From: an uncultured virus (IMG/VR IMGVR_UViG_3300037467_001324)
Taxonomy: Duplodnaviria > Heunggongvirae > Uroviricota > Caudoviricetes
DNA length: 64,000 nucleotides
Reading direction: 5' to 3' (one strand)
Virus record (IMG/VR): IMGVR_UViG_3300037467_001324
Shown here: positions 1,106 to 62,750 of the stretch, in pieces
Numbering within the stretch: position 1 is the first letter of the stretch
Layout: each line of letters begins with the position of its first letter
Program-made: the position numbers and the translations under genes
Notes under the pieces: generated by a model
The model's database searches: none
What the model was told of the DNA's origin: nothing
What the model saw: only the letters and a program-made list of their open reading frames with translations

Positions 1106-1348
1106 ATGACCGCAGAGCAACTGCTTTCAGAAGATGTTGAGTTCTGGCCGCTGGACACGGTGCTTCGCAAGGTCGGCCTGTCAAGGTCCGAGATTTACCG
1201 TCGCCAGCGCGACGGTAGCTTCCCCGCCTCAAGGAACTACCGCAACTCGAGCCGCCGATACTGGCTTTCAAGCGACGTCCGCCGCTGGCAAGCCGAGGAA
1301 CTGGCCGGCGCTCCGATTGGCGATGACGAGTTCGGGCTGATCGGATGA
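1106..1348 (+). CDS. AlpA-family regulator/excisionase
   Basis: VLRKVGLSRSEIYRRQRDGSFP...WLSSDV pattern; next to the integrase. Confidence 0.85.
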   Translation: MTAEQLLSEDVEFWPLDTVLRKVGLSRSEIYRRQRDGSFPASRNYRNSSRRYWLSSDVRRWQAEELAGAPIGDDEFGLIG

Positions 1349-3719: not shown

Positions 3720-5122
3720 CCGGAGTTATCCTGCAAGGCGATTCGCTCGAGCGTTTGCGCGAGCTTCGGGACAACAGTGTCCACATGGTCGTCACATCTC
3801 CGCCCTATTTTGGCTTGCGGGACTACGGCACGGGCAACTGGCAGGGTGGCGACCCCGACTGCGATCATGTGTCGCATCGCATCCGAACGGGCGACGGCCT
3901 CGCAGCGTTTAGCGCGAACCTCAAAGGCGGCGGTCACAAGGCCGGGTCGGAGGAGAAGGTCGTTCGCTTCAAGGGACAGTGTGGCAAATGCGGTGCCGTC
4001 CGTGAGGATCGGCAGCTTGGCCTTGAGGCGACACCAGAGGAATATATCGCGGCGATGGTCGTGCTGTTCCGCGAGGTGCGGCGTGTCTTGCGCGAGGACG
4101 GCACGTTATGGCTGAACATCGGCGACAGCTATTGCAGCTCCGGCTCTGGAAAGCAGGGCAAGAACGGGCAGATGGCTGACCGCGCCGTATCGCAAGTGCG
4201 CGGGAGTGAAGTGCCGCGAGCGGGACATTTCGACGGCATCAAGCACAAGGACCTCATCGGCATCCCTTGGATGCTCGCCTTCGCGCTGCGTGCCGATGGC
4301 TGGTATCTCCGTCAGGAAATTATTTGGGATAAACCCAACCCGATGCCGGAATCGGTGCGCGACCGCTTCACGAAGGCGCATGAGAACTTGTTCCTGCTGA
4401 CCAAATCACCGCGGTATTTCTTCGACGCCGAGGCGGTCAAAGAGGACATGGCTGAGAGCAGCCTAGCGCGGGTCGCGCAGCCCAACCTCGCCAACCAGGT
4501 CGACTCCGCCCGCGCGAACGGCGGAATGAAAACCAATGGCAACATTAAGCCCGCAGGCGATTTCGTGTCGGGGAAGCGCAATAAGCGGAGCGTTTGGCGC
4601 ATTTCGACGAAGCCATTCAAGGAAGCGCATTTCGCCACCTACCCACCCGAGCTTCCGGAGCCGTGCATTCTCGCCGGCACGTCTGAGGAGGGCGTCTGCG
4701 CTAAGTGCGGAACGCCGTGGCAGCGGATAATCGAGAAGGGCGAACCCCTGCTCGAGTGGCGACAGGCCTGCGGCGGCGATTTAAACGGCGAATACGATGG
4801 TCAGGCCATCAAGGAATACGAAGGCACAGGCGCGCAGAATGCTTCGGACGTCAAGCGCAGGATCCTCGCGGGTATGCGAGAGCGCATCAGCCGTTGGGAG
4901 CCGGGCTGCGATTGCAACGCTCAAACCGTTCCGGCGACCGTCCTCGACCCGTTCTTCGGTGCCGGGACGACAGCGCTCGTGGCCGAGAAGCATGGGCGTC
5001 GCTGGATCGGCATCGAACTAAATCCGGAATCGGTTGAAATTGCGCGCCGCCGTCTCGCTCGTGAGATGGTGCCGAACAAACGGGCTGCCTATCGCGTGCT
5101 CGCATTGGCACTGGCAGCATGA
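3716..5122 (+). CDS. DNA N4-C/N6-A methyltransferase (beta class) with Cys-rich inserts
   Basis: TSPPY, HFATYP, VLDPFFGAGTT, GIELN. Confidence 0.93.
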   Translation: MTGVILQGDSLERLRELRDNSVHMVVTSPPYFGLRDYGTGNWQGGDPDCDHVSHRIRTGDGLAAFSANLKGGGHKAGSEEKVVRFKGQCGKCGAVREDRQLGLEATPEEYIAAMVVLFREVRRVLREDGTLWLNIGDSYCSSGSGKQGKNGQMADRAVSQVRGSEVPRAGHFDGIKHKDLIGIPWMLAFALRADGWYLRQEIIWDKPNPMPESVRDRFTKAHENLFLLTKSPRYFFDAEAVKEDMAESSLARVAQPNLANQVDSARANGGMKTNGNIKPAGDFVSGKRNKRSVWRISTKPFKEAHFATYPPELPEPCILAGTSEEGVCAKCGTPWQRIIEKGEPLLEWRQACGGDLNGEYDGQAIKEYEGTGAQNASDVKRRILAGMRERISRWEPGCDCNAQTVPATVLDPFFGAGTTALVAEKHGRRWIGIELNPESVEIARRRLAREMVPNKRAAYRVLALALAA

Positions 5123-7332: not shown

Positions 7333-7405
7333 AAATCACTAATTAGTTGATTCGGTCACGCTCGGGTGTCATATAGGACGTCACCGATTTCACGCGGGCG
7401 AGGGA

Positions 7406-9366: not shown

Positions 9367-10664
9367 CGAGCAACCCGCTTATCGCCCGCTTCGCCAACGA
9401 GCCGTCGCTGCTCGCGCCCGGCACCGAAGATCGCTTTCAGGCGCTGCTCAACGCTGCGGCGTCGCATCCGATGCTGGCTGAACTTGACACAATGGAACGT
9501 GCCGAGGGCGGCGATTTCTGGACTGAACTCGGGCCGCGCGCTTCGGCGATCCTGCGCCCCTACATCGTGCAGAACGGGATTCTCCTCATCCCCGTTCGCG
9601 GTGTCCTGCTCAACGATTTTCCTTACGCCTTCTACGACCTCGCCACGGGTTACGAATACATCACCGAGGCCTTCAAGCGGGGCATGGACGACTCCAATGT
9701 CAAGGGCATCGCCCTCGTCATCGACTCGCCTGGCGGAATGGTGGCAGGCTGCTTCGGCTGCGTCGACAAGATGTACGCCCGCCGTGGCGAGAAACCTGTC
9801 CGTGCTTATGCCTCGGAGAGCGCCTACTCGGCAGCTTACGCGATATTCTCGGTGGCCGAACATGGCACCGTCGCGCGCACAGGTGGAGTCGGCTCCATCG
9901 GCGTCGTCACTGCGCACATGGACCTGTCGAAGGCGCTCGAGGATTTCGGAATCAAGATCACTTTCATTTTCGCTGGTAAGCACAAGGTCGATGGTAACGC
10001 CTACGAGCCGCTGCCTGCCGATGTGAAGGCGCGCATCCAGACGCGCATTGACGAGCTTTACGGGATCTTCGTCCAGACGGTCGCGCGCAATCGCGGCCTC
10101 GACGAACAGGCTGTGCGGGACACGGAGGCGCTGACCTTCACCGCCAGCGAATCGCTGTCGAACGGGTTGGCCGACGAAATCGGCGAACTCGACGATGCCC
10201 TGGCCGCGTTCGCGGCCGATTTGTCCAACCCTCAAGGAGATGAGGAAATGTCCACTCAGGACAAGCCGGCCCTGACCCAGGCCGACATTGATAACGCTGT
10301 GGCAGCCGCCACCGCGAACCACGAATCGGCGCTCGCCACCGCGCGCACCGAAGCCGCGTCGGCGGAGCGCACGCGCATCGCCGCCATTCTCGGCAGCGAC
10401 GAGGCGAAGGGCCGCGAGGGTCTCGCCAATCACCTGGCGCTCGAGACCGACACTGCCTCCGAGGCTGCTGTCGCGATCCTCGCCAAGTCGCCGAAGGTCG
10501 AGGAAGGCGCCGAAACCCCGTTCAACAAGGAGATGTCGAAGGGCAATCCGGATGTTGGCGCAGGCGAAGGCGATGACGACGAGCAGGCCATCAGCAACCC
10601 CGTCGCCCTTGCGCGCGCTGCGGGCATCCGCGGCGTTCGCCCTGCTCCGGCTCCGGCGCAGTAA
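9363..10664 (+). CDS. S49 capsid maturation protease (gpC-like) with C-terminal scaffold region
   Basis: IDSPGG, AYSAAY, GSIGV, AGKHK; start at the ATGA overlap with the portal stop. Confidence 0.93.
   Translation: MTSNPLIARFANEPSLLAPGTEDRFQALLNAAASHPMLAELDTMERAEGGDFWTELGPRASAILRPYIVQNGILLIPVRGVLLNDFPYAFYDLATGYEYITEAFKRGMDDSNVKGIALVIDSPGGMVAGCFGCVDKMYARRGEKPVRAYASESAYSAAYAIFSVAEHGTVARTGGVGSIGVVTAHMDLSKALEDFGIKITFIFAGKHKVDGNAYEPLPADVKARIQTRIDELYGIFVQTVARNRGLDEQAVRDTEALTFTASESLSNGLADEIGELDDALAAFAADLSNPQGDEEMSTQDKPALTQADIDNAVAAATANHESALATARTEAASAERTRIAAILGSDEAKGREGLANHLALETDTASEAAVAILAKSPKVEEGAETPFNKEMSKGNPDVGAGEGDDDEQAISNPVALARAAGIRGVRPAPAPAQ
10248..10664 (+). CDS. Probable nested Nu3-like scaffolding protein
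   Basis: In-frame ATG preceded by AAGGAG/GAGG inside the S49 gene; Ala-rich ERTRIAAIL region. Confidence 0.6.
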   Translation: MSTQDKPALTQADIDNAVAAATANHESALATARTEAASAERTRIAAILGSDEAKGREGLANHLALETDTASEAAVAILAKSPKVEEGAETPFNKEMSKGNPDVGAGEGDDDEQAISNPVALARAAGIRGVRPAPAPAQ

Positions 10665-10698
10665 CCCCGAGTCACTAATTTAGGGAGTATCCCCGAAA

Positions 10699-11172
10699 AT
10701 GACCGACATTCCTGCCTCCTACCTCAACAGCGACGTGCGCGGCACGCCGTCTTTCGAGGCGCTCGACCAACTGGTCGACACCAATCTGCTCGCCGGCAGC
10801 TCACCCGGCCTTTCTTCGCCGGTGCGCATCCTGCTCGCCTCGAGCCTCGCCCTCGCGCAGTTCAGCGTGGTCGGCCTCGACGCGAACAACCACCTCGTGC
10901 TTGCCACGCACGACGCGGTCACTCCGGCCAACTCCATCACGCCGATTGGTGTTCTCGCGCACGCGGCCTCGAGCGGTGCAGCGAACACGACCATCCACGG
11001 CGAGGTATTCCTCACCGGCAATTTCAACGCCGGCGACGACGACGCGGGTGGCGACAGCCCGCTCGTTTGGGACGCTTCGTTCACGACGCTCGCCCTCAAG
11101 GTCGCGTCCGTGGTCGGCAATCCGAACCTCATTTTCCGTAGCCGCAAGGCGACGGGTTCACCCGCCGCTTAA
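10699..11172 (+). CDS. Head decoration protein (gpD-like)
   Basis: Between protease and capsid genes; IGVLA..., GNFN motifs. Confidence 0.8.
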   Translation: MTDIPASYLNSDVRGTPSFEALDQLVDTNLLAGSSPGLSSPVRILLASSLALAQFSVVGLDANNHLVLATHDAVTPANSITPIGVLAHAASSGAANTTIHGEVFLTGNFNAGDDDAGGDSPLVWDASFTTLALKVASVVGNPNLIFRSRKATGSPAA

Positions 11173-11196
11173 CGGCTAGAAAGGAACGACAGAGCA

Positions 11197-12294
11197 ATGA
11201 CCTCTCCTGTCACCGCTTACAATCTGTGGGACAGCCGCACCTCGCTCGGGGTGATGCGCGATACCCGTCCCGAACCGCGGCCTTTCAGCCGCTTCTTCAC
11301 GAACGGACTCCGCTCGACCGACGAGTGGATCGATTTCGAGAAGCTGCCCATCAAGGCGCGCCGTCTCGCTCCGTTCGTCAAGCCGCTCGGCCAGGGTCGC
11401 GGTATCTATACCGACAAGGCCAAGGGTCTCCGCTTCAAGCCGGCCTACATCAAGGTCGAGGAAGCGATCGATCCCCTGCGCCCGCTGACCTACCAACCGG
11501 GCATCGACCAGTCGATGTTCGACCCGAACAAGCTGTCGCCGACGCAGCGCACCGAACTGCTCAAGGTCGCCATGACGGTCGACGCGATGGACGCGATCGA
11601 GCGCCGGTGGGAGTGGATGCGCGCCAAGGCGCTCATCGACGGCAAGGTCACCTGCGTTTACGAGGACGGCGACTCCGTCTTGGTCGATTTCCAGCGCGCC
11701 GCAGGTCACACCGAGGTTCTGACGGCCGGCAACCGCTTCGGCGACGCCGGTGTGTCGATCACGGACAAGATCCAGGCCATCGTCGACACGATGAACGACG
11801 CCGAGTTCAGCGGTCTGCCCGTGCAGGTCGAGATGGGCGGCGGCGTCTGGTCGGTGCTCCGCAAGGACGCGGCGATCCTCGACAACCTCGACAAGTTCCG
11901 TCCGGTCGGTGGAGTCACCATCGAGCGCGGCGTGACGACCTCGGGTGACCGCTCGAAGCGGTACAAGGTTGGTGAGCTCCAGATCGGCGGCGGAAGCGGC
12001 ATCAGCATCGAGCTGTTCGTCAACAACGAAGCCTATGAGGCCGACGATGGCACGCAGGTTCGTTACGTTGGCAACAACGAGATGGTGTTCCTCGCCACGC
12101 CGGAGACCATCAACGGCTACGAGTGCTTCGGCATGATCGTCGACCGGGACGCGCAGTATCAGGCGCTCCCGATCTTCCCGAAGAATTTCGAGAAGGGCGA
12201 CGATGTCAAGATCGAGCACCTGTCGTTCAAGTCGGCGCCGCTCATGGTGCCGATCAACCCGAACGGCACCTACAAGCTGACGCCGATCGCCTAA
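11197..12294 (+). CDS. Major capsid protein (lambda gpE family)
   Basis: RRLAPFVKP, FKPAYIK, IERRWEWM, SAPLMVP. Confidence 0.93.
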   Translation: MTSPVTAYNLWDSRTSLGVMRDTRPEPRPFSRFFTNGLRSTDEWIDFEKLPIKARRLAPFVKPLGQGRGIYTDKAKGLRFKPAYIKVEEAIDPLRPLTYQPGIDQSMFDPNKLSPTQRTELLKVAMTVDAMDAIERRWEWMRAKALIDGKVTCVYEDGDSVLVDFQRAAGHTEVLTAGNRFGDAGVSITDKIQAIVDTMNDAEFSGLPVQVEMGGGVWSVLRKDAAILDNLDKFRPVGGVTIERGVTTSGDRSKRYKVGELQIGGGSGISIELFVNNEAYEADDGTQVRYVGNNEMVFLATPETINGYECFGMIVDRDAQYQALPIFPKNFEKGDDVKIEHLSFKSAPLMVPINPNGTYKLTPIA

Positions 12295-12312
12295 GCGACG
12301 GTGAGCCTTTTC

Positions 12313-12346
12313 GCCCGGAGGGTTCAGCTTCCCTCCGGGCTTTTTT
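12313..12346 (+). terminator. Rho-independent terminator after the capsid gene
   Basis: GCCCGGAGGG/CCCTCCGGGC 10-bp stem followed by TTTTTT. Confidence 0.9.
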
Positions 12347-12363
12347 CCAAGACGAGGTGTTGA

Positions 12364-12732
12364 ATGAGCAAGTCAATTCCCGCCGTTGTCGCGACGCAGC
12401 GCATCAACGGCACCATCCTTCCCGGTACGCTTTTCGTTCCGGCATCCGCCGACGATCATGCCGACTTGGTCAGGCTCGAGGCCGTCCGCGAGCCGACCGA
12501 GGCTGAGCTTCTCCTCCACGAGAAGATGCAGTCTAACGCGGCTGCGTCGGAAGCCTCCTCGAAGCCTGCCGGTGGCCGTGGCCGCGGCGGGCGCAAGGCC
12601 GCGCAGACCGGCAACGGCGATGACGCCGGCAACGGCGATGACGCCGGCAACGGCGATGACGCCGGCAGCGTCGTCGCCGGCAACGGCGATGACGCCGGCA
12701 ACGGCGACGACGCTGCGGCGGCGATCGGCTGA
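12364..12732 (+). CDS. Hypothetical virion/packaging protein with GNGDDA repeats
   Basis: ORF in the gpFI-like position after the capsid gene, with a low-complexity tail. Confidence 0.7.
   Translation: MSKSIPAVVATQRINGTILPGTLFVPASADDHADLVRLEAVREPTEAELLLHEKMQSNAAASEASSKPAGGRGRGGRKAAQTGNGDDAGNGDDAGNGDDAGSVVAGNGDDAGNGDDAAAAIG
12610..12714 (+). repeat. In-frame 18-bp tandem repeat GGCAACGGCGATGACGCC (3 + 2 copies)
   Basis: Copies at 12610, 12628, 12646, 12679 and 12697 (the last degenerate). Confidence 0.95.
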
Positions 12733-12734
12733 CC

Positions 12735-13106
12735 ATGTCTGCCGCACTCGACGCAGCGCGGCAACAAGCGCGCCGGGACCTTCATCGTGAGATGTCGGTC
12801 CCGGCGCTCTACATCGTTGGCACCGAGGACCCGGTCGACGTCACCGTGCGTCGGCAGACCCGTGTCGCCAAGACTGGCGACATCGAGGGACTCGACACTG
12901 CCGAAATCTCTGTTGAAACCGTTTTCCTGCGCTTTCTGATCGACGAGCTCGCACAACCGAAGCGCAACGCCATTGTGTCTGTAGCCGAGGGCGAAGCGTA
13001 TCGCATTGACCACGCCCTTGCTCCGCATGGTGTCACCATCGACGCGGCCGTCACCAGGCTGGACACCGCCGAAGCAACAGGGCTTCCCCTTCCGAGCGTG
13101 CCGTGA
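12735..13106 (+). CDS. Head-tail joining protein (gpFII-like)
   Basis: Synteny; ARRDLHREMSVPALY N-terminus resembles Chi-like head closure proteins. Confidence 0.65.
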   Translation: MSAALDAARQQARRDLHREMSVPALYIVGTEDPVDVTVRRQTRVAKTGDIEGLDTAEISVETVFLRFLIDELAQPKRNAIVSVAEGEAYRIDHALAPHGVTIDAAVTRLDTAEATGLPLPSVP

Positions 13107-13696
13107 GCGAGGCTTATGTCATTGCGGTCGAGGGCCTCACCGGAATCCCGGTGGACTCCGCGCGCATCGCCGAGAACGCGAGCAAGGCCATCAACCGCAC
13201 CGTCGAGCGGTCAAAGGCAGCTGCGTCGCGCCGGATGCGGCAACAGGTCGCGTTCAAGGCGGGCTACCTGTCGCGTCAGGACAGGCTTGGAATCACGAAG
13301 AAAGCATCGCGTAACGACCTTGAGGCGGTGATAACTGGACGCCACCGTCCGACAAGCCTGGCGCAGTTTGCTCGCGGCGCCCGCGCTACTGGTCGGCGCC
13401 GCAGTGGAGTCACCGTCGAGGTCCAACCCGGCCTCGTGCGCCGACTCGACAAGGCGTTTTTCATCAAGCTCAGGGCGGGCAACACCGACGCTGGCCCCGG
13501 CAACCTCGGTCTCGCCATTCGTCTGCCGGAAGGCAAGATCCCTGACCGTGCTTACAAGCCAACGCGCATCGGCAAAAACCTGTGGCTTCTTTATGGTCCT
13601 TCCATCGATCAAGTGTTTGACGATGTAGCGAATGACATTTCCCCCGAGGCTGCCGATTTCCTCGAGGCGGAGTTCGCTAGGCTGATGGGTCTCTGA
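13103..13696 (+). CDS. Minor tail/neck protein (gpZ-like)
   Basis: Basic protein, AINRT, RPTSLAQF, LYGPSIDQVF; synteny. Confidence 0.7.
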   Translation: MSEAYVIAVEGLTGIPVDSARIAENASKAINRTVERSKAAASRRMRQQVAFKAGYLSRQDRLGITKKASRNDLEAVITGRHRPTSLAQFARGARATGRRRSGVTVEVQPGLVRRLDKAFFIKLRAGNTDAGPGNLGLAIRLPEGKIPDRAYKPTRIGKNLWLLYGPSIDQVFDDVANDISPEAADFLEAEFARLMGL

Positions 13697-33376: not shown

Positions 33377-33805
33377 CTACGCAGTGCCTTTAAGTTTCCT
33401 ATCGAAAATCTCAAGCGCACCTAGTGACAGACGGTAACCGCGGCCGCGGACCGTCTCGATTGCGTCCTCGCCGAGCTTCGCCCGAATCTTGCAAATCATC
33501 ACGGACACGATGTTGGACTCGAGCGAGCAGCCGCGTTCCTCGTCGAGCATTCCTTCGAGTCTGAGCGACGACATCAACTTTTCCCGCCGCTGGTATAGAG
33601 CCGTGCAAATCATCGCCTCGGTCGCGCTCAGGTCGAAACGTGCCTGGATCGCATCGCAGAGGTCCTCCTCGATTAGTTGGCACGCCTCGCGTTTCCAGTG
33701 CTCGACCTCGTACTCGAGCTGCTCGATTCGCTCGCGCAGCTGCGCATTCTCAGCCTCCATCCGGCGATAGTCGCCGATGCAATGGATGCTCGTCGGCGCG
33801 TTCAT
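33377..33805 (-). CDS. Coiled coil plus OmpR/CtrA-type winged-helix protein, no receiver domain
   Basis: LSATE…NIVSVMICKIRAKLG..IETVRGRGY. Confidence 0.85.
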   Translation of the reverse strand: MNAPTSIHCIGDYRRMEAENAQLRERIEQLEYEVEHWKREACQLIEEDLCDAIQARFDLSATEAMICTALYQRREKLMSSLRLEGMLDEERGCSLESNIVSVMICKIRAKLGEDAIETVRGRGYRLSLGALEIFDRKLKGTA

Positions 33806-34413
33806 CCGATGAGCTCGAGGAGGGGATCAGGCAGGAACTTGTCGACCTCGTTGCCCCACGCGTCCCAACCGTCGCGGCGCTTGCGTGCGAACATTTCCAG
33901 AAAAGGACCTTCGCTGAGCCGTTGGATACGCTCGTACTGTTGGTCGGGCTTGCGGCTATGCTCGCGCCTCGGCGCATAGATGACGTTTTCTCCGGTCTCG
34001 ATCAGCTGCCGGACACCGGCGTCGAGACGCGAAGGCTTTCCCCGCGTGAACAGGAGGCTGTATTCGACCTGCTTGCGGAACCATTTCCCCATGCTGATGG
34101 GGCGCACAGTCGGATCGTTCTTGCCCGTTTTCACCCAAACAAGGCCGTCGCTCTTGAAGGCGAAGCCCCAATGACGACCGAGTTCGATCGCTTGGTCAAG
34201 GTGGCTGCCGATGACCCACATATGGAGGACGCAGTCCTTCGCCGCGATGTCGGCCACAGGCAGCGCCCGCAGTTCCTCCATGCTCATCACATCATAAGGC
34301 GCGTCCTCCGTGCGGTGCGGTGCGCTCGCCTTGCCGGCGTAGCTGACCCACGCCCACGGCGGGTCGGCGACGATGCAACCATACGGGCCGGAGGGCAGCG
34401 GCGGAGTAGTCAT
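33802..34413 (-). CDS. MT-A70 family adenine methyltransferase
   Basis: ADPPW, WVK, RREHSRKP, LEMFAR, WGNE. Confidence 0.93.
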   Translation of the reverse strand: MTTPPLPSGPYGCIVADPPWAWVSYAGKASAPHRTEDAPYDVMSMEELRALPVADIAAKDCVLHMWVIGSHLDQAIELGRHWGFAFKSDGLVWVKTGKNDPTVRPISMGKWFRKQVEYSLLFTRGKPSRLDAGVRQLIETGENVIYAPRREHSRKPDQQYERIQRLSEGPFLEMFARKRRDGWDAWGNEVDKFLPDPLLELIG

Positions 34414-35039
34414 CCGATGAGGCTTTCGATTTCGTTGCTCGGGAACGGGACGAGGAGTCCGCGATGTTGCCCGAGCGGGTTGGAGTTCATGCGCTCGAGC
34501 GCAGCGACGCAGTCATTGCCCCACGCGACCAGCATCGACCCGGCTCCGGCGCCAGATTTGCGCTTCTTGCCATCTTTCCCGACGACTATCGGCGGCTTGC
34601 CGGTCTTATCGACGAACTTGAGTCGCGCGTTCAGGAACAGGATGGCGTCGGCCGAGGCGGCAGTCTCGTGGAACCATTCGGTGTCGGTGCGCGCGAACAC
34701 GAGAGCGATGCCGCAGCGATGTTCGCCCATCCGGCGCAGCCATTGCTTCGTTTCAGGGCCGTAGGGCGGGTTGCACCATATCATGCCATCGTCCGGCCAC
34801 GGCAGATCGAGACCGTTGTCCGGCAGCGAATAGAATCGCTTGGCCGGGATCCACGGCAACCCTCCTGACGGCGCGCACGGGTCCAAGTCGAACTCGAGAC
34901 CGAGCTCGGCGAATATGGACGGCGGCGTGTACCACTCGACGGTCTCGCCATCGAAGGGCTTCTCGTGGCTGAATCCTGTCTTGGCCTCGCTGATCGGCGT
35001 GGCACCGATGAGCGCGTCGATGTCGAGCGGCGCGTTCAC
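34410..35039 (-). CDS. Phage DNA N6-adenine methyltransferase (Dam-like)
   Basis: EWYTP, FDLDPC, WCNPPYG, ARTDTEWFH; GTG start overlapping the upstream TGA. Confidence 0.9.
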   Translation of the reverse strand: MNAPLDIDALIGATPISEAKTGFSHEKPFDGETVEWYTPPSIFAELGLEFDLDPCAPSGGLPWIPAKRFYSLPDNGLDLPWPDDGMIWCNPPYGPETKQWLRRMGEHRCGIALVFARTDTEWFHETAASADAILFLNARLKFVDKTGKPPIVVGKDGKKRKSGAGAGSMLVAWGNDCVAALERMNSNPLGQHRGLLVPFPSNEIESLIG

Positions 35040-35320
35040 CCGATGAGCCTCTCGATGAGGTCGGCGTAAAAGGCGCCGTCCAGCTGCGGCTCCTCGCGCA
35101 GTGTCGGATGCGGCTGAGGCCACGCATTCGCGGTGACAGATTCCGCAAAGCGCCACATTTCGAGTTCGCTGAGATGCTGCGTAACCGGGTGACGCTTGAG
35201 GGCGAAAACGACCGCTTCCTCGAGCTCATCCGGGCCTATGTCCGAGCCGCAGCATTCCTCGAACGGCCAACCCGAGCCGCACGGGCAATCGCACTCCTTG
35301 ATGGGTATTTCCTCGGTCAC
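35036..35320 (-). CDS. SEC-C motif protein
   Basis: CPCGSGWPFEECCG. Confidence 0.75.
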   Translation of the reverse strand: MTEEIPIKECDCPCGSGWPFEECCGSDIGPDELEEAVVFALKRHPVTQHLSELEMWRFAESVTANAWPQPHPTLREEPQLDGAFYADLIERLIG

Positions 35321-55033: not shown

Positions 55034-55110
55034 GCATCAACCTCGGTTCGTCGCATCCGATTGCCCTGGCGACAGCTGCTCGAGGCTGCTGTTGTTACGC
55101 CGGCAATACG

Positions 55111-55200
55111 GAGACAGCATGGGACAGCATGGCACGGCTGCCCTGCTACGCTGCGACCTGTGGCACAGCATGAGACGCTATGGGACAACATGAGACAGTG
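55111..55200 (+). repeat. 10-bp-period repeats, consensus G(A/G)(G/C)ACAGCAT
   Basis: GAGACAGCAT GGGACAGCAT GGCAC… and GGCACAGCAT GAGACGCTAT GGGACAACAT GAGACAG; another copy at 55367-55381. Confidence 0.85.
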
Positions 55201-55275
55201 CATCGATCCGCTCGAACAGTCGCGCTGGCACTCCGCTGCCTGGCCGACGCGCATCCCCGTAACCCTTTGAATTGC

Positions 55276-55322
55276 GGGTCCTTTCTAGGCGCAACCGGGC
55301 GGGCGGGAGGCGCTGAGCCCCG
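55276..55322 (+). other. Candidate cos site (cosQ plus cosN)
   Basis: GGGTCCT (lambda cosQ sequence) at 55276-55282, then a GC-rich 12-mer GAGGCGCTGAGC at 55307-55318 flanked by GG/CC; gpA-type terminase. Confidence 0.6.
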
Positions 55323-55415
55323 AAAAAACAGCGTTTTCGGAGGACCTATTAGGCCATAGTGAGCCTGAGACAGCATGGGACGCCTGGGGACGGTGACCTC
55401 GAGGCGATTGAGCGC

Positions 55416-55733
55416 ACCGTCACACCCTCCGAGCCTGTGACGCACCTGTGACGGTAGCCTGTGACGGTCATTTTCCGCAGAAATCCGCCGCAAAAGGGGC
55501 AATCGTCACAGGATCACAGGTGTTTCCCTAAGAAACATTATGAATCCAGGGACTCAAGCCTGACGGCATTGAAATGGACGAGCTCGAGCGCGCAAAATCA
55601 CCCCTGCTACGATAAGTTATACAAGGAGGAGCCTGTGATCCTGTGACGATGCGACCTAAAGCTCTGAAATTGCTCGGAAAAAGGCGGCACAGGTAGCCTG
55701 TGACGACCGTCACAGGTAAACAGGGGTGTGACG
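55416..55733. repeat. CCTGTGA iteron-like cluster in both orientations
   Basis: Forward at 55434, 55445, 55458, 55632, 55640, 55697; reverse at 55506, 55514, 55710; 19-bp inverted repeat 55502-55520/55632-55650. Confidence 0.9.
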
Positions 55734-55734
55734 A

Positions 55735-56184
55735 TTAGCGGCCTAAGCCAGCAATGACGCTCCAACCGTTGCATTCGGTTACGCGGTCGCGCCGCCGCGG
55801 CGTTTTCGAGCCTCGCGACCGGCGATCGTCCAAGAACATCCAGCAGATTTCGGGTCGACCATTGACCTCCGGAGTGCGTGACCAGAGCTCGGGGTCGAGC
55901 CAGAAAGCGGGGTCGCCAGGCTGCCACGGGGCGCTCAGTTCGAGTCCCGATTTGACCGCAGGGAGTGGCTTCGGCTCAGCTCGAGCGGCCCAACCGAGCT
56001 TCCATCCATATTGCTCGGTCCAGATGCGATAGCAGCCGCCGAAGCAGTCGTTGATGTTCTCCTCGCACCAGAACCGCTGACAGGTCTCGCAGCCCATCAC
56101 GCTGAGGCCGCAGTTGTACAGCTTCGTGCCGCACGCCGGGCAGCGCATCATGTCGAGGATCTGGTCGAACGCATCGTAGTTCAT
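55735..56184 (-). CDS. Cys-rich hypothetical protein
   Basis: CPACG…CETC…C…C..GC; start uncertain. Confidence 0.5.
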   Translation of the reverse strand: MNYDAFDQILDMMRCPACGTKLYNCGLSVMGCETCQRFWCEENINDCFGGCYRIWTEQYGWKLGWAARAEPKPLPAVKSGLELSAPWQPGDPAFWLDPELWSRTPEVNGRPEICWMFLDDRRSRGSKTPRRRDRVTECNGWSVIAGLGR

Positions 56185-56279
56185 GGGGAAGCCGCGGCGC
56201 GCGACCCATTGCCGGCGACGTCGCTCGAGGGAGGACAGAAGGCTCAACATGGACGCAAGCATAAGCGAAAAAGTGAGCC

Positions 56280-56321
56280 GGTCAATTCTTTGTTGACTGA
56301 CGGTTGAGTCGGACATATACC
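56280..56321 (+). promoter_or_regulatory. Rightward promoter for the putative ncRNA, with a near-consensus operator over the -35
   Basis: TTGACT (56293-98)-N17-TATACC (56316-21); GGTCA-N9-TGACT at 56280-56298. Confidence 0.6.
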
Positions 56322-56327
56322 GATTCG

Positions 56328-57160
56328 CAGGTCATGGCACTGCTGCTTGAGCAGCTAGGTCGACACGGTACACCCGCCCGAGGCGGGGACTCCGGCATCT
56401 CCCCGAGGCCACAAGGGAGTTGCACAACAGCGCCGCTGCGGGGTCCTCCCCTTTGCCTTGCAGCGGCGCTTAGAGTTTCAGACTGCCCTGAGTTCCACGA
56501 CGAAGCGGCGACGGCCAAATCGTGAGATGGAGCAGGAGCGGCTAGGGCGGCGGGAACCTTGTTCAAGCGAATCGCCGCCCTACGAGTTTGCCGGAGCGTC
56601 CTTTGCGTGTCCAACGGGACCGGGTCGTTAGGCGAAAGCGGGTTCCGACCGCGAAATCGGACGCCTTACCGGACCGCGAGACCCGGTATGACAGCCGGAA
56701 AGAACGGTGCTGCGGTTCCGGAGCCGTAGTCGAGGCGGGAGAGGCAAACCTTCGCGGTCTCGACCAGTTTCAGAGGTGAGCCTCCCCACGGCGCCGGAAT
56801 CGAACCCCGCCGTTACCGGGCTTACCGCCTCCCACGGGGACAAGAGGCGGGCTGTGTTCGGCCAGTCAATCTATCGAGACCGCAGGAGCTCGATTAGACC
56901 GAACAACTCCTGCTCATTTGCAGGTCGCAGCGGACGAGGCTTAGGCGCGATTGCTTCGCAGCTGACGTGGAAACGCTCAGGGGCGGTGCAAACCGGAAAC
57001 GGTCACAAAGCGGTGGGTAGCGTGCGGCTGACCAGACTTGCGGTGACCCTGGTCCGCGAGGTTAAAGCTCGACTGGTCAGTCATCCCCTACGGAGAACGC
57101 AGTCCGCCAGGGTCACCTTAAAAATTGGTCCCTGGGCCGCGTCGCTAACCCGCGAAAATT
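56328..57160 (+). ncRNA. Candidate large structured non-coding RNA (about 830 nt)
   Basis: No credible ORF; many helices, GNRA loops, G-U pairs that only work on the + strand, long-range pairings. Confidence 0.65.
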
Positions 57161-57214
57161 CGGAAATCTAACACCTTGAGTCGCAATCTTGCATACATTT
57201 TTGGGACAATCGGC

Positions 57215-59713
57215 TCACCCGATGAGATCGGCTTCCTCGAGCGGCGTCACCCTGACATAGGTGCGCTGCCGACCGTAAGCGCCGTGAACGACAGGACTCG
57301 CCTGCTGCCAACTGGACGCGATGGCAGCCTTTGACATGGCGCGCGCGATCGCTTGCTGGTTGGCAGCTGTGTAGCTGCGTAGATCGCCGCGGAGACACTC
57401 GACCCAAATCTGCGGGAGGCACACCTTGTCGCGGTAGCGCGGCTTCTGGTCCTTATCGAGGTCGTCGAAGCCGCCATCATTGATCGGTGCTGCCAGCCAG
57501 GCAGCAATGACGCCGGCCATCCCATCGTCGCTCGTTTCCATGCGACGTGATTCTTGAAGCCCTGCGGCAATGGCGCGCGATTCATCGTCGCGCAGATGCA
57601 GCGGCAGCGTGCCAACGGGTTGAGCAGCCCGCATCTGCCGGTAGAACAGCACTGCCTCAGCCCATAACTGGTCGACATTGCGCTCCAGCTTCGCGGTATC
57701 GATCTCAGCGACGTGGCACGGCATCGGCCAGAAGCGGCGGCCGCCCGTGTCGTCCTTGAGATATTCGCGGTCGTTGGTCGAGCCGATGAAAATGCACTGC
57801 CGCGGGAACTCGCCGGCGCGACGGGCATAGGCGAGGCGCGCGCGGTCCTTCTTGCGGCTGATGAACGCCTTGATGGCGCGCACGTCCGACCGCTGGAAGC
57901 CGGTCAGCTCCGGCAGTTCGAGGATCCACGCGCCCTGCATTAGCTCGATCATCATTTTTGGGTCGTGGAAATCGCCGTCGAGCTCGGCGAACCACTTGCG
58001 GCCGAGTATCTCGATGAAGGTCGACTTGCGCTTGCCTTGGAGACCCTCGAGGATGACGGCAAAATCGAACTTGTGGCCGGGTTCGAAGATGCGTGTAACC
58101 GCGGCAGTCATCATCAATCGCGCGATGTCCAGTGTGTACGGGTTCGGCTCCGCGGCGAGATAGTCGACGAACAGGCGCTCGACGCGCCGCGTGCCGTCCC
58201 ATTTGAGGCCGTTGAGGTACTCACGCACCGGATGAAAGGCGTGGTCGTTCGCCGCAATGACGATCGCCGCTTTGAGATCGCGGTCTGACACCTTGATGCC
58301 GTAACCGCCCTGGGTCCGCGGCGCTTCGATCAGCGCCCGCATTGCGAAATCACGGTCGTCGGACCACAGGCTGCCATTCAGCGGGTCGGCGACGTCCCAA
58401 ATGCGGCCCTCGAGCTGCACAACAGGCTTCGCCTGGTTCTTGCGCCGCGGTTCCTTGTAGCCGGGCGAGATGCGCTGGACGGTCTCCTGTGTGAACTCAT
58501 TGATTTGCGCGAGGCCGACGAACCGAGGGTCGTTGCGGACGATCAGTTTGACGTTGTGAAGGGTCGGCCGGAACGCGCCTTCCTCGTTCACCTCCATCAG
58601 CGAAATCCACCCGAGACCGGCCTCGGCGCCGGCAGCGAGCACGGACTCGAAATCGTTCCCGGTGGATGGTCCGCCGATCAACGCATCGATGTCGTCGTCG
58701 GCTTCCTCCTCATCCTCATCCTCGTCGGCACCTGGCTCATCGTCGTCGATGTCGTCGAAGGCCTGGAACATCCGGACCTGGTTGGCGACCGCCTTGAGCG
58801 TTGCCATGCGCACGGAGTTGGGTTTTTGACGGAAGCTGTTCCAGACGACTCGCTGGTCCTTCTCGTCGAATTTCGCCGACTGCTCCGAGAACTCCTTCCA
58901 GATGTCATAACCGATCTCGTCGCCGCCGAACTCGTGGTGCAGCGCCATGCCGACCGTCAGCCAACCGTCGCGATCCTCGCAGTATTCCTCGATTGGCAGA
59001 TCATCGAGGATAGCTTGAGCCTCGTCCTCGGTGAGACCGAGCGGCGGCTTTAGGTCGAGGCTGTCCGCGGATGCCGCGTTGTCGAGCATCCCCAATTCTT
59101 CAAGCCGTGCGGCCGGGATGCGTGGAAATAGCCCGAGCATGAGCTCGTCGAGATCGACAGCACGTTCCCAAAGATAAGGTTTGCCCGTGTCGGGGTGAAT
59201 CGACGGCGGCATAGCAACTTGCTTGCCGGTGCCGAACAGCTCGATTTCCCAATCGCGTTTCTTGACCTCACGCCCGAGCTTCTCATCATAGACCATCTTG
59301 AAGGTCTCGCTGCGGGCGAGCTTCTTCGACGGGAACGCCTTCTCACAGGCAAAATAATAGTGGCGCGACGGTCCGCCTGATCCGGAGATGACGCTCGGAA
59401 CGCTGTCGGCGATCGCCGGAAACAGCTCGTCGAGTTTTGCGCGAGCCTCGTCAGCGTAAGCAGGATCGCGGATGTCCAGGTCGATGGCATGGAGGTAGGA
59501 GCCATCCACCAACTGCGAGACCTCGCCGAGGCGCACGCCGACATTAACGCCGGGCGAGTGCCGTCGCCGAAGCTGCTCGAGCGTGGCGACCGGCTTGGTT
59601 GACCAATCCTCGCCGATAGGGCGCTTCGATTTGGGATGCAGCCAGTGAATCGCAAAGCCGGCCTCACGGAGAGGGCCGATTTCTGCCAACACCTGTTCGT
59701 CAAAGGCAGTCAT
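57215..59713 (-). CDS. Bifunctional primase-polymerase/PriCT-2/VapE-type helicase
   Basis: SKRP…W, NVGVRLG, IDLD, HYYF, PPSIHPDTG; WLTVGMALHHE; Walker A GLQGKRKST; GSTN..YLKDDTGGRRFWP. Confidence 0.93.
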   Translation of the reverse strand: MTAFDEQVLAEIGPLREAGFAIHWLHPKSKRPIGEDWSTKPVATLEQLRRRHSPGVNVGVRLGEVSQLVDGSYLHAIDLDIRDPAYADEARAKLDELFPAIADSVPSVISGSGGPSRHYYFACEKAFPSKKLARSETFKMVYDEKLGREVKKRDWEIELFGTGKQVAMPPSIHPDTGKPYLWERAVDLDELMLGLFPRIPAARLEELGMLDNAASADSLDLKPPLGLTEDEAQAILDDLPIEEYCEDRDGWLTVGMALHHEFGGDEIGYDIWKEFSEQSAKFDEKDQRVVWNSFRQKPNSVRMATLKAVANQVRMFQAFDDIDDDEPGADEDEDEEEADDDIDALIGGPSTGNDFESVLAAGAEAGLGWISLMEVNEEGAFRPTLHNVKLIVRNDPRFVGLAQINEFTQETVQRISPGYKEPRRKNQAKPVVQLEGRIWDVADPLNGSLWSDDRDFAMRALIEAPRTQGGYGIKVSDRDLKAAIVIAANDHAFHPVREYLNGLKWDGTRRVERLFVDYLAAEPNPYTLDIARLMMTAAVTRIFEPGHKFDFAVILEGLQGKRKSTFIEILGRKWFAELDGDFHDPKMMIELMQGAWILELPELTGFQRSDVRAIKAFISRKKDRARLAYARRAGEFPRQCIFIGSTNDREYLKDDTGGRRFWPMPCHVAEIDTAKLERNVDQLWAEAVLFYRQMRAAQPVGTLPLHLRDDESRAIAAGLQESRRMETSDDGMAGVIAAWLAAPINDGGFDDLDKDQKPRYRDKVCLPQIWVECLRGDLRSYTAANQQAIARAMSKAAIASSWQQASPVVHGAYGRQRTYVRVTPLEEADLIG

Positions 59714-59758
59714 TCACGCTCCTGTCGACCCAAACCCAATCACTCTGCGGACGGGTCG

Positions 59759-60067
59759 TCAGGAGAGCAGGAAGCGTGCAAAATCCTGCTTGGTCGGAGG
59801 CGCGATTCCGCGTTCCGCGAGATGGTTGCTATATGGCTCCCTGTTCGCGAGCTCGATCAGACGCTCGACGCCCTTCTTCGACAGGATGCGGCCGTCGCGG
59901 AGCCACTTATAGAGGCCCTCCTTGGTCATGCCGATTTCCTTGGCGAGCTGCTCGACGTCGAGCACGTTCTGCTTCTTCGTGCGAAGCGTTGGAAAGACGT
60001 GACAGAGGGTCTTGTAGAGCTCCGTTCCAGTCCAGCTGAAACGCTGCGGTGCATCGGCTACTTGCAT
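59759..60067 (-). CDS. Cro-like HTH regulator
   Basis: VEQLAKEIGMTKEGLYKWLR; GGAGG RBS; operator at 60136-60154 in the divergent intergenic region. Confidence 0.75.
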   Translation of the reverse strand: MQVADAPQRFSWTGTELYKTLCHVFPTLRTKKQNVLDVEQLAKEIGMTKEGLYKWLRDGRILSKKGVERLIELANREPYSNHLAERGIAPPTKQDFARFLLS

Positions 60068-60219
60068 TCGATTCGTCCCTCCGGTTGCCCCGACATTAAC
60101 GAACGGCGTTCGCCAAATCAACCGGCTATTGTTTAAATCACTAAACAGTTGACTGAAACGGCGCACGAGGGCAAAACAAGCGCCGACTCGCCGGTGGGGT
60201 GAGGTTCAGAGGAGCGAAC

Positions 60220-60780
60220 ATGAGCATTGAAACAGCGTTGGCGGAACTGACCGCCGCCGTGGTTGCCAATACGGCGATCCTGGAGAAACTCGAAGCCGGA
60301 CGCGAAGCAGCGCTTGCGCAGCTCGAGGCGAAGGGTGAAACCAAGACAACCCGAACTCGTAAGCCGAAGGCCTCCGACGATAGTGCAGGGGATGCGGCGG
60401 GAAACGCCAGCGGCGCCGAAGGTGCAAGCACGGGGTCTCAGGCGGGCGGTGCCACAGCTGCTGTTAAGAGCACCGCGCCGACCGCCGACGAGGCGCTCGT
60501 TCGCCAAGTCGCCACTGACTACATCAAGGGCGCCGGCGACAACGCCGAGGAACGCAAGGCGCGCGCAGGCAACATCAAACGCATCACCGATCATTTCGGA
60601 ACCGCGGCGCTAGCCGGCGACAACGGCATCAAGGACGCAGAGCAACGCGCCCAGGCGGTGTTCTACCTCAAGCGGTATGATGCTGGCCTCGAGGTCAATT
60701 TCAGCGCCGAATATGACTTCACCGGCGACCCCACCCAGGGCGCCGCGGAAGCGGAGGATTCGTTCGACGGAATCGGCTGA
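60220..60780 (+). CDS. Hypothetical replication-module protein
   Basis: MSIETALAELTAAV N-terminus, low-complexity linker; GAGGAG RBS. Confidence 0.75.
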   Translation: MSIETALAELTAAVVANTAILEKLEAGREAALAQLEAKGETKTTRTRKPKASDDSAGDAAGNASGAEGASTGSQAGGATAAVKSTAPTADEALVRQVATDYIKGAGDNAEERKARAGNIKRITDHFGTAALAGDNGIKDAEQRAQAVFYLKRYDAGLEVNFSAEYDFTGDPTQGAAEAEDSFDGIG

Positions 60781-60806
60781 CGAATCACTAACTTAGGGAG
60801 TCCAAG

Positions 60807-61569
60807 ATGGACCAGAACACGCTTACGAACAAAGAGAAGGCGATCATCTCCGCCATCAGTTCGGCAGTTACAGGTGGCGTTGGCTACGGTCTGCTGCCGC
60901 CCGGTACGCCAGAGGTCGTCAGTCTTATCGGCGCTGCCGTGCTCGCTGTGACGGCTGCGGTTTACGCCGTGAAGCATCTTCTCAATCCGACCGCGTAACT
61001 CGATGGAACCGACCATCGAAATCACGCGCTCGAAGCTCATCGCTGCGCTGGCGCAGTGGGAGGCGGACAGCAAGGCTAACAACTGGCCTGAGCGCGCCGA
61101 CGAGGAGCGTCACGCGGACAACGCGGACTACCTCCTCGAGCTGATGGGCGTGAATTGAGATGGGCGCCGCCATCTCCGCTGAGGTGGCCGAGCAGCGAGC
61201 TCGGGAGATGGCGACGCTCGACCCCGCCGACCGCGATGTCCGCATCGTGTTCGGTATCCTCTCAGGCGTGGTGACTGACGGGCGCTCGCGGTTCGCCGCG
61301 GGACGGCCCGTCAGCATCGCCGCGAGGTGCGCATGAACCGGGAACTTAATCCCTGCACAGATTGCCCGTTTCGGGCTGAACTGAATATCGAGCACGCAAT
61401 GCTGCGTTCGCAGGTCGAAGCCGGTCAATGGGTTCCCTGCAAGAACACCCTTCGAGCTCCTGCTGACGGCAGCTTCCAGGCGAAGATCGAAGCCTGGCGA
61501 CAGGAGGAAGAATGCGCTGGCGCTCGGATGTGGCGGCGTGATCGACAGCTGCCCGCTATCGCCGCGTGA
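60807..61569 (+). other. Four small genes (60807-60998 membrane; 61003-61158; 61160-61336; 61333-61569 Cys-rich)
   Basis: Contiguous + strand ORFs; PCTDCPFR motif in the last. Confidence 0.55.
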
Positions 61570-62750
61570 TCGCACACGCGAAACTGTCGCCCTCCGGCGC
61601 TGACCGATGGATGGTCTGCCCCGGTAGCGTTGCCGCCGAGGAAGGCCTCCCCGACGAAACCAGCGAGGAAGCCGCCGAAGGCACCTTCGCGCACATGATT
61701 AGCGAGGACTGCCTCGCGCTAGGCTTGGACCCTTACGATTTCATCGGTCACCGAGCTACCGTCGAAGGCCATTCATTCGAGTGGGACGAGGAGGACGCAG
61801 ACAACCTCGCGTTCGGCATTTCGCAGATTCGCTCGTTCGGTGGGCAATTGTACGGCGAGCAGCGCGTCGATCTCACTCACTGGCTTGGCGACGATCAGTT
61901 TGGCACACTGGACCGCGCAATCATTCTGCCCGACCTCATCGTCATCGACGACCTGAAATGGGGTCGCGGGATCCCGGTCAGCCCGGTCGAGAACCGACAA
62001 CTGTCGCTATATGGACTCGGCTTCTGGCGTGACATCGCCCGCCATCAGACCAACGCAACTGATTTCCTCATCATCATCGATCAGCCCCGATGCAGTGGCG
62101 GCGGAGGCGAATGGCGGACGACACTCGATCAGCTGCTCGCGTTCGGCGAGGAAGCGCGCGGTGCCGCTGAGCGTACCCGCGATCCCAACGCACCGCGCGT
62201 CGCGAGCGAGAAGGGGTGCCGCTTTTGCAAGCGCCGCGAAGCACCCGGTGGATGTTCGACGCTCGATATGTTCATGCTCGATTTGTTCGGAAAGCAGTTC
62301 GACGACCTGGACGACGAAATTATGGTTGGCGGACCAATGGAGCTGCCGGTCGTCGTTACGCCCGAACGCAGGAGCTTCATTCTCGATAACCGCAAGCTGT
62401 GCGAATCGTGGTTCGACAAGCTCCATGCTCAGGCGCTCGATGATGCGCTCCACGGGCGCCCATGCGGCGGCAAGAAAGCAGTCGAGGGCCGCAAGTTGGC
62501 CGACAAATGGAAGAACCTAGACGACGCTGACATCGCGCTCCTGCTGATGCTCGGCGACGGCCGCCACAATCTCAAGCTCAAGACACCGACTCAGGTGACG
62601 AAAGAACTCAAGCTCAAGGACAACATTCCGCCTGAGCTGGAGCAGCTGATCGAACGCGGACAGCGAAAGCCGACGCTCGTCAGCGAGCAGGATGCTCGAC
62701 CTGCAATGCTGATTAACCTCGAGCAGATGTTCGACGACCTGGACACTTAG
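61566..62750 (+). CDS. DUF2800 Cas4-like PD-(D/E)XK nuclease
   Basis: HAKLSPS..RW..CPGS, EGT.AH, FGTLD, DLKWGRG, QL.LY, CRFC. Confidence 0.9.
   Translation: MIAHAKLSPSGADRWMVCPGSVAAEEGLPDETSEEAAEGTFAHMISEDCLALGLDPYDFIGHRATVEGHSFEWDEEDADNLAFGISQIRSFGGQLYGEQRVDLTHWLGDDQFGTLDRAIILPDLIVIDDLKWGRGIPVSPVENRQLSLYGLGFWRDIARHQTNATDFLIIIDQPRCSGGGGEWRTTLDQLLAFGEEARGAAERTRDPNAPRVASEKGCRFCKRREAPGGCSTLDMFMLDLFGKQFDDLDDEIMVGGPMELPVVVTPERRSFILDNRKLCESWFDKLHAQALDDALHGRPCGGKKAVEGRKLADKWKNLDDADIALLLMLGDGRHNLKLKTPTQVTKELKLKDNIPPELEQLIERGQRKPTLVSEQDARPAMLINLEQMFDDLDT

Follow-up and report, generated by a model that had tools for sequence, protein, structure and literature searches.

A candidate modular noncoding RNA with a conserved pseudoknotted core in a gene-free region of an uncultured tailed phage

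Introduction

Large structured RNAs encoded by phages are few, GOLLD and ROOL among them, and a further family unrelated to these would add to a small set. GOLLD is described as combining a universally conserved part with a less conserved part and a linker able to hold other elements, and its association with tRNA islands as frequent, not obligatory (PMC12286853). ROOL is described as occurring in phages and prophages and as having a complex pseudoknotted structure, with no protein partner or function known (PMC12286853).

The present analysis concerns a gap of ~900 nt between two minus-strand genes, one for a 193-aa open reading frame (ORF) and one for a primase, in the IMG/VR record IMGVR_UViG_3300037467_001324 of an uncultured virus (Caudoviricetes); the whole 64,000-nucleotide stretch analyzed is called the window throughout. 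An earlier note, made from the letters alone, had proposed that this gene-free region (56328-57160) carries a giant phage RNA with its own promoter, belonging either to a class such as GOLLD or ROOL or to a new one. Comparison with related phages leads us to consider it probable that the region is a stand-alone gene for a + strand structured noncoding RNA (ncRNA) of a family not in Rfam.

Results

Conserved Core

Relatives of the region were gathered by searches with the flanking proteins, using for the primase only its C-terminal half, since an acidic low-complexity pattern otherwise dominates; large sequence collections were scanned by exact pattern, and covariance models were run on 13 phage records and the window. 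Four of these 14 phage genomes or fragments (the window and three of the 13 records, namely L016, G002 and L007, the last being the same contig as L014) contain a conserved pseudoknotted core of ~150 nt, which lies at 56766..56921 on the + strand (block 2) and which, being the only part common to all four loci, is most likely the working part. In the comparative model, all on the + strand, the core comprises helices P1 (56775-83/56818-26), P1a (56789-93/56808-12) and P2 (56827-31/56844-48), a closing helix (56849-52/56912-15), P3 (56855-61/56899-905) and P3a (56870-81/56886-98), as well as a pseudoknot joining an internal loop to the P2 loop (56784-87 with 56836-39), which was added to the alignment by hand.

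Compensatory changes carry this model. RNAalifold applied to three sequences (window, L007 and L016) yielded 41 pairs, eight of them with compensatory double changes. The covariance model built from the same three sequences (R1) scored them, as its training set, at 185.5 bits (window), 177.5 (L007) and 150.5 (L016), and located one new full-length member at G002:8794-8936 (L021:1501-1643) with 24.7 bits (E ~3e-5). The resulting four-sequence alignment with the pseudoknot has 43 pairs, in which 161 of 166 cells are paired (97.0%) and 17 pairs show changes on both sides; none of 500 shuffles reached any of five measures, and slid controls, with partners shifted by 1-3 columns, gave 32-41% paired cells and 2-4 double-change pairs. 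Thus, covariation among homologues, by which the earlier note had proposed to judge the RNA, is found in the core. P2 has a different, fully complementary sequence in each of the four members, P3a covaries at five pairs, and the pseudoknot reads CCCC/GGGG in three members and CGGC/GCCG in G002. The G002 member keeps the leader GUUUCAGAGGUGAGC and the motif CGGGCUUAC, with P2, P3 and P3a swapped for different complementary sequences. The leader (GUUUMAGAGGUGAGC), this motif and all core helices are present in the window, L007, L016 and L021; the leader is a conserved single strand directly 5' of P1 in the four sequences, and further unpaired stretches are invariant.

The core has G-U at 17 cells, including two pairs that do not vary among the four sequences, and when the opposite strand is read, the number of cells that pair falls to 145 of 166. 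These G-U cells and the fall in pairing on the other strand favor a + strand RNA over a DNA hairpin or a minus-strand RNA. The preference of the earlier note for a structured RNA on the + strand, which it had based on G-U pairs and loop types, is therefore backed on two counts, by conserved G-U pairs and by compensatory changes seen in the records of three other phages. With filters off, model R1 finds no diverged copies of the core among the other modules of the region, and its weak matches in G004 and G005, which cover a single hairpin (E 0.2-0.34), were taken as noise.

Known RNA Families

A cmscan search of the whole window against Rfam 15 gave 0 matches at the gathering score. When E values up to 10 were allowed for 56000-57500, three chance-level matches appeared (MIR7510, Giardia RNase MRP and SCARNA2; E 0.54-5.3), all far below the gathering score and on or beside the hairpin 56429-70, and the same scan of the L021, L016 and L007 loci gave no match common to the homologous loci. 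With the GOLLD covariance model, nothing reached the gathering score in the window, and 56000-57500 and the L021, L016 and L007 loci gave no match even when E was raised to 10; the ROOL model was likewise without a match in the window and, at E up to 10, in 56000-57500 and these three loci. Rfam models of group I and group II introns, RNase P RNA, OLE, HEARO, 6S and known ribozymes were unmatched in the region, those of riboswitches were unmatched in the region and the homologous loci, and ARAGORN found 0 tRNA or tmRNA genes in the 64-kb window. All the families that the earlier note had named for comparison (GOLLD, ROOL, OLE, introns, tmRNA, RNase P) being unmatched, the region appears to belong to no catalogued family; of the two affiliations offered there, the absence of an Rfam match speaks for a new class and against membership in GOLLD or ROOL. 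Among the papers listed by literature searches on GOLLD/ROOL-like and large phage-encoded noncoding RNAs, none was relevant to an RNA of this kind.

Two other resemblances were considered. P1 (GGUGAGCC/GGCUUACC) is reminiscent of helix P4 of RNase P; its strands lie ~35 nt apart here, not ~280. A T-arm reading of the GGTTCGATTCC-like string on the minus strand (~56797-56807) was rejected, as no T arm forms and the string is not conserved in L007 or L016. The compact pseudoknotted fold of the core, its invariant unpaired stretches and the strongly conserved single-stranded leader directly 5' of P1 in four sequences would also suit a self-cleaving or otherwise catalytic RNA that processes its own transcript; this likeness is general only, no Rfam ribozyme matches even at E up to 10, and we hold such an activity to be very unlikely.

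Coding Potential and Folding Energy

Two ORFs overlap the region, one of 154 aa on the + strand (56707-57171) and one of 110 aa on the - strand (56282-56614). Neither has a match in Pfam or PHROG, protein-level conservation of the 110-aa ORF was not found in the closest relative (L007), and the conserved blocks hold frame-breaking indels of 1, 4 and 25 nt; the region thus contains no credible gene, as had been supposed from the sequence alone. The individual hairpins listed at that time are present by sequence reading, GGAA and GAAA loops included, and a repeat search returned three perfect inverted repeats, at 56429-39/56460-70 (11 bp), 56543-52/56573-82 (10 bp) and 57042-52/57107-17 (11 bp). 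As to the proposed long-range pairing of 56530-38 with 56907-15, the 9-nt complementarity exists; it is at chance level for the region size by our estimate and is not conserved.

The + strand of the region folds with -387.3 kcal/mol (z -5.96 against 20 dinucleotide shuffles, none of which is as good), the - strand with z -2.61 against such shuffles. Thus, folding on the + strand beats dinucleotide-shuffled controls, a comparison that the earlier note had regarded as potentially refuting, and is modest relative to the background of the same genome, sampled with both strands at 106 positions (212 windows, 833 nt each). Against this background, the GC-corrected residual of the + strand fold has z -1.8 and the - strand is average, and the strand asymmetry of -24 kcal/mol is within the range of the genome (mean +4.5, standard deviation 19). 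Given this modest signal, thermodynamics alone is insufficient for the claim, which is carried by the covariation among homologues. By far the strongest folding in the genome occurs in windows 10201-13400 (to -437 kcal/mol per 833 nt, both strands), which overlap the major head protein gene and its neighbors; GC-rich repeats, or some other feature, may be the cause there.

Decayed coding sequence, or a hairpin-rich spacer that arose by chance and has no function, would be in keeping with the presence of ORFs of 154 and 110 aa and with the fact that high-GC DNA folds well by chance. The compensatory changes and the near-invariant junctions across phages with genes ~76% identical or less, along with the lack of family matches and of protein-level conservation, make this hardly credible.

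Modular Architecture

A conserved 5' domain of ~105 nt (56322..56427, + strand) is shared by the three primase-linked loci only: the model built for it (R2) matches the window, L007 and L016, and none was detected in G002. Its helices, as predicted by RNAalifold on the + strand, are 56331-38/56359-64, a variable hairpin at 56342-46/56351-55, 56366-68/56392-94 with 56373-76/56384-87, and 56395-403/56415-23. The hairpin at this inner position differs from phage to phage, and one C-G pair of the domain is U-G in L016.

The linker between this domain and the core begins with a strong + strand hairpin (56429..56470), which in the minimum-energy fold has 16 bp, two G-U pairs among them, and -30.8 kcal/mol. 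It is kept in L007 with one U-A to C-G and two G-U to G-C changes and is absent in L016; a role as intrinsic terminator was rejected, there being no U-run after the stem. The variable linker segment that follows (283 nt, 56483..56765, + strand) is bounded by the 9-nt direct repeat AGTTTCAGA (56474-82 and 56766-74). It is absent in L007, whose genes are ~76% identical to those of the window at the DNA level and which has only ~530 nt between the primase gene and its homologue of the 193-aa ORF: the blocks corresponding to 55962-56482 (75% identity) and 56766-56907 (84%) are kept and abut, and 56483-56765 as well as most sequence after 56907 is missing.

Within the linker of the window, module M3 (56584-56765, + strand; ~185 nt) is homologous to L016 4500-4700 and lies 5' of the core in the window and 3' of it in L016. 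The two M3 sequences give 50 pairs with 100 of 100 cells paired and 10 double changes, a result reached by 1 of 500 shuffles, the structure having been derived from the same two sequences that were scored. L016, which lacks the 193-aa ORF and has the non-coding region downstream of the primase gene, contains the core, the 5' domain, the homologue of 56584-56768 and the 3'-domain junction motifs; its linker is filled with other sequence. The variable 3' extension (M4, 56925..57160, + strand) contains the helices 57042-52/57107-17 and ~57010-28/57136-53 and is absent from L007; its + strand junction sequences, CGGACGAGGCTTAGGC (56931-46) and GGTGGGTAGCGTGCGGCTGACCAG (57012-35), are shared with L016 and flank a replaceable hairpin cluster.

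Metagenome contigs from soil and rhizosphere add further variants, including L007-type forms. In a soil contig, 56445-56775 is replaced by 197 unrelated letters, joining 56368-56444 to 56776-56805; in a soil contig, too, 56920-46 and 57014-37 are kept with an 18-nt hairpin in place of 67 nt, between flanks unlike those of the window. The loose end of another contig suggests a form in which the core follows the 5' domain after only 24 nt. Variable hairpins are thus found between invariant junctions at three places, namely the inner 5'-domain hairpin, the linker and the M4 junction. Judging from these comparisons, a linker of 24 to ~340 nt joins a conserved 5' domain to a conserved core, which is optionally followed by a 3' extension, and whole folded modules are gained, lost or moved between phages. 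The 830 nt that the earlier note had treated as one RNA do not behave as one unit, with the 5' domain occurring in three loci and the core in four, the 283-nt segment and the 3' domain missing in L007, and M3 relocated in L016. From base composition, ~0.4 copies of the motif AGTTT would be expected per region, and three are present in each of the regions of the window, L016 and G002, most of them at borders of modules; these may be processing sites, recombination joints or neither.

Such mobility raises the alternative of several small RNAs (5' domain, M3, core and M4) that would have roles of their own, be exchanged between phages and be cut from one precursor at single-stranded linkers, perhaps at AGUUU, which may be linked to RNase E. 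This alternative would accommodate the shift of M3 from the 5' side of the core in the window to its 3' side in L016, the M4 junction between unrelated flanks in a soil contig, the G002 core without a detectable 5' domain, the excess of AGTTT (three per region against ~0.4) with its bias to module borders, the 9-nt direct repeat bounding the 283-nt segment, and a second non-coding segment of 257 nt with a 13-nt direct repeat in G002 (see below). We nevertheless consider it rather unlikely: the 5' domain and the core stand in the same order in three loci and one soil contig, as is also suggested for the variant with a 24-nt linker, only a single promoter-like site is seen, and that loose end may be without the AGTTTCAGA leader.

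Genomic Context

The window represents a tailed-phage genome of 62% GC, with terminase, portal, capsid, tape-measure and tail genes on the + strand in its first half and a long block of minus-strand genes at 32-61 kb. Downstream of the putative RNA gene, and convergent with it, lies the primase gene (57215-59713, - strand; 832 aa; Prim-Pol / PriCT-2 / VapE-like, Pfam PF09250, PF08707 and PF05272); the interval 57215-61575 is mostly filled by minus-strand genes (primase, a helix-turn-helix protein and further ORFs), and no + strand gene follows the RNA within the window. On the other side is the 193-aa ORF (55735-56316, - strand), which is cysteine-rich and has no Pfam or PHROG match and a single IMG/VR relative (L007, 55% identity). 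At least four genes of the window are DNA methyltransferase-like by PHROG (1345-3012, 3716-5122, 33802-34413 and 34410-35156). Between its primase gene and the RNA region, L016 has an additional gene (phrog_5429; 3619-4347, + in that locus), whose annotation is that of a DNA repair protein and which the window and L007 lack.

This arrangement would allow a cis-acting or antisense regulator, in which + strand transcription running head-on into the primase operon tunes primase or fires a nearby replication origin. The RNA is indeed convergent with primase in the window and L007, and in L016 with the phrog_5429 gene and then primase, and a scan lists no terminator-like site between the RNA and the primase stop codon. 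Neither antisense action nor interference, however, requires a pseudoknotted, covarying fold, the primase-adjacent M4 is the least conserved part and is absent in L007, and the core of G002 lies among packaging genes, co-directional with them and far from primase; this makes such a regulator quite unlikely. In G002, the core is located between a GpA-type terminase gene and gpW/portal within ~790 nt of non-coding DNA, upstream of gpW with ~390 nt of other non-coding sequence intervening, versus 75 nt between the GpA-type terminase and gpW genes of the window. The occurrence of the core in this unrelated context suggests a movable unit and not an appendage of the primase gene. After the G002 core and before gpW, the 13-nt direct repeat AATCAGTTTTTAC (L021 1696-1708 and 1953-1965; record G002) bounds the second, 257-nt non-coding segment, which has the look of a further inserted cassette without coding content. 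As a canonical terminator, the long hairpin that follows the G002 core was rejected, not being listed by the scan and having a T-run that starts 8 nt after the stem.

For a stand-alone RNA, action in trans would then be preferred, because three loci have no gene after it on the same strand, conservation is lowest in the part closest to primase, and the core recurs in the unrelated context of G002. The folded RNA may bind a protein, a ligand or its own copies, as thought for GOLLD and ROOL, whose self-assembly gives closed homo-oligomeric nanocages, and would not regulate a downstream gene.

Beyond these loci, L001-L006, L015, L017 and L018 show no homology to the region, and the nearest virus record, G001 (an 18.7-kb fragment), lacks it. 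When 50,697 phage records were searched by blastn with the regions of the window, L016 and G002, no match was obtained; plasmids gave a single 37-nt match (E 6e-3) inside a Ralstonia gene, which was taken as chance. Exact-pattern scans recovered, among viral contigs, either nothing or only those of known relatives (L007 alone, or the two known contigs), and nothing among 185,579 species genomes, and a primase search of genome contigs gave no match. A 21-mer scan of metagenomes hit two related contigs in which an unrelated gene begins with the 21-mer; these were discarded as chance matches.

Promoter-Like Sites and a Palindromic Operator

The promoter-like site TTGACT (56293-98)-N17-TATACC (56316-21), spanning 56293..56321 on the + strand and pointing into the RNA, is present as initially described, by sequence reading; a strict consensus scan does not list it. 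The same scan lists, with 9 of 12 consensus matches, a divergent promoter-like site for the 193-aa ORF (TTGACC-N16-TATGCT, 56258..56285, - strand). A palindromic operator-like site, GTCAATTCTTTGTTGAC (56281..56297), is shared by the two and overlaps the -35 hexamers of both. The first 20-45 codons of the 193-aa ORF overlap this operator and both promoter-like sites, so that its true start is probably further downstream (e.g., Met at ~56241 or 56184).

The palindrome is over-represented in the genome: the pattern GTCAAN7TTGAC (<=1 mismatch) has eight sites in the window versus 1.34 expected, a number reached in 0 of 100 shuffles. These sites (GTCAAC-N5-GTTGAC and near variants) are located at 41187, 44024, 47270, 51531, 51988, 55016, 56281 and 17904; six of those other than the RNA-proximal one fall in the minus-strand gene block, most of them between its ORFs, and several then carry a -10-like hexamer and CGAATCA. 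The palindrome is probably a shared operator/promoter element of the phage. One base of GTCAATTCTTTGTTGAC differs between the window and L007, and the stretch 56283-56344, which runs from the palindrome across the promoter-like site and ~17 nt into the putative RNA, has three differences, versus ~76% identity in the flanking genes. L016 keeps TTGACT and the spacing, with GTAGGT as the second hexamer.

The RNA is probably transcribed from TTGACT-N17-TATACC, whose palindromic operator would also serve the divergent minus-strand promoter. Since the -35 hexamer overlaps an over-represented palindrome, control of the RNA by this operator is plausible, and through the shared element the RNA would be co-regulated with the minus-strand gene block. 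A strict pattern common to phage promoters (TTGAC-N-TA-CGAWTC) was abandoned, as only two sites fit and the RNA promoter is not among them. Elsewhere in the window, TTGATT-N17-CATATA (7347-7375), in the 75-nt gap after the terminase gene and upstream of a gpW-like ORF (start 7407), is loosely like the RNA promoter-like site, with a different spacing to CATATA (17 vs. 15).

Predicted Genome End

The end of the L017 contig aligns exactly with GGAGGCGCTGAG at 55306-55317, which places the predicted genome end (cos site) ~1.0 kb left of the RNA start, in agreement with the position beside a genome end assumed in the earlier note. L002, L005 and L006, too, have contig ends of similar form, and these resemble the left end of the Rhodobacter phage RcMcDreamy. 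The cos-like region (55100-55730) holds CATGGGAC-like repeats (~55110-55400) and CCTGTGAC repeats (~55400-55720), which may be binding sites for terminase or an accessory protein. Judged by primase (~46% identity), the closest named relatives belong to the RcD cluster of Rhodobacter capsulatus phages, in which primase is gene 1 and a cohesive end, with a 5' overhang of 12 bases, lies ~690 nt away (PMC8601537). We have examined their ~1-kb unannotated gap downstream of primase in RcCWillis (L026 2342-3319) and RcMcDreamy (L010 1-690 and L011 4670-5245) and found it to be the cos region, with several short direct-repeat families, lower GC and no relation to the RNA described here. The proposal that the RcCWillis gap holds the same RNA was rejected, as this gap carries cos and repeats instead and reaches a best R1 score of 6 bits. 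Rejected as well was the idea that the 5' domain is itself the cos site, prompted by its content of GGGGACTCCGGC, which is like the RcD overhang; the L017 contig end aligns to 55306-55317 instead. L017 has neither the RNA nor the 193-aa ORF and L016 has the RNA only, and both elements look like accessory insertions between cos and primase in this lineage.

As the region has the predicted cos site on one side and the primase gene on the other, and as the equivalent gap of the RcD-type relatives holds cos and protein-binding repeats, one might suppose that the hairpins act as DNA, as single-strand initiation signals, an origin or packaging-accessory sites. Invariant G-U (in DNA, G-T) pairs and the other G-U cells, 17 in all, favor RNA on one strand, however, and the compensatory change in the pseudoknot is hard to explain for DNA; moreover, a repeat search shows no iteron-like repeats in the region, unlike the cos region 55100-55720, and the G002 core is far from both cos and primase. 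A DNA-level function of the hairpins is accordingly highly improbable.

Discussion

Conservation and covariation of a pseudoknotted core in two genomic contexts, the strand preference of its pairing and the absence of Rfam matches point to a stand-alone ncRNA gene. Several observations weigh against this reading. Six of the 212 windows from the same genome match or surpass the + strand of the region in folding. The core is represented by four sequences, three of them from closely related phages, and the fourth was aligned by model R1, which favors the structure of that model. None of the 25 consensus pairs of the 5' domain shows a double change (RNAalifold; window, L007 and L016), because the sequence is nearly invariant, and its conservation could come partly from DNA-level signals beside the operator. 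The scan found no canonical terminator-like site in the window region or L016, and the analyses of the region and its homologues gave no pointer to a partner or an activity. Finally, given the change in module order and the junction motif within other flanks, several separate RNAs fit equally well.

As a tentative extension, the locus may possibly be the founding example of a class of ornate phage RNAs built from cassettes, in which a universal ~150-nt core would be the active element (a ribozyme, a trap for a ligand or protein, or a scaffold that assembles itself) and modules would be shuffled at short direct repeats; operator-controlled and near the genome end, such an RNA could be an early take-over or anti-defence RNA. 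The position by the predicted genome end and the putative operator-controlled promoter raise the idea of expression early in infection. A small pseudoknotted core with clear covariation provides a compact target for structure determination and biochemistry, and the exchangeable modules could show how such RNAs evolve by domain shuffling. The family occurs in GC-rich soil phages related to cultivable Rhodobacter phages. More generally, gene-free gaps of phage genomes can hide conserved RNA genes missed by current annotation and by Rfam.

Among described systems, the packaging RNA (pRNA) of the phi29 type is also a phage-encoded structured RNA with a gene near the genome end. The likeness is one of location only, the RNA here lying ~1 kb from the predicted cos site and the G002 core between terminase and gpW/portal; unlike pRNA, the RNA has no Rfam match, and its phage has a conventional large terminase and portal, which are not known to need an RNA. 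Riboswitches are similar in that they, too, are compact domains of 100-150 nt that are pseudoknotted and covary and whose junction nucleotides are invariant. Unlike a riboswitch or cis-acting leader, however, the RNA is followed by no same-strand gene in the window, L007 and L016, and what comes next is the antisense strand of primase (of the phrog_5429 gene in L016).

GOLLD, like the RNA described here, is phage-borne, several hundred nt long and rich in helices and pseudoknots, the phage context being given in our case by terminase, portal, capsid and tail genes in the window; both also combine a universal part with more variable ones, which here are a lineage-specific 5' domain and a hypervariable linker around a universal core. 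The RNA differs from GOLLD in matching no Rfam model, in having a conserved core of only ~150 nt, in the lack of tRNA genes in the 64-kb window, and in its setting, with contigs from soil, ~62% GC and closest named relatives that infect an alphaproteobacterium. With ROOL it shares the phage-encoded origin and a complex pseudoknotted structure, and it differs in lacking an Rfam match, in not being near tRNA islands and in its architecture. Overall, GOLLD and ROOL are analogues of this RNA, not relatives.

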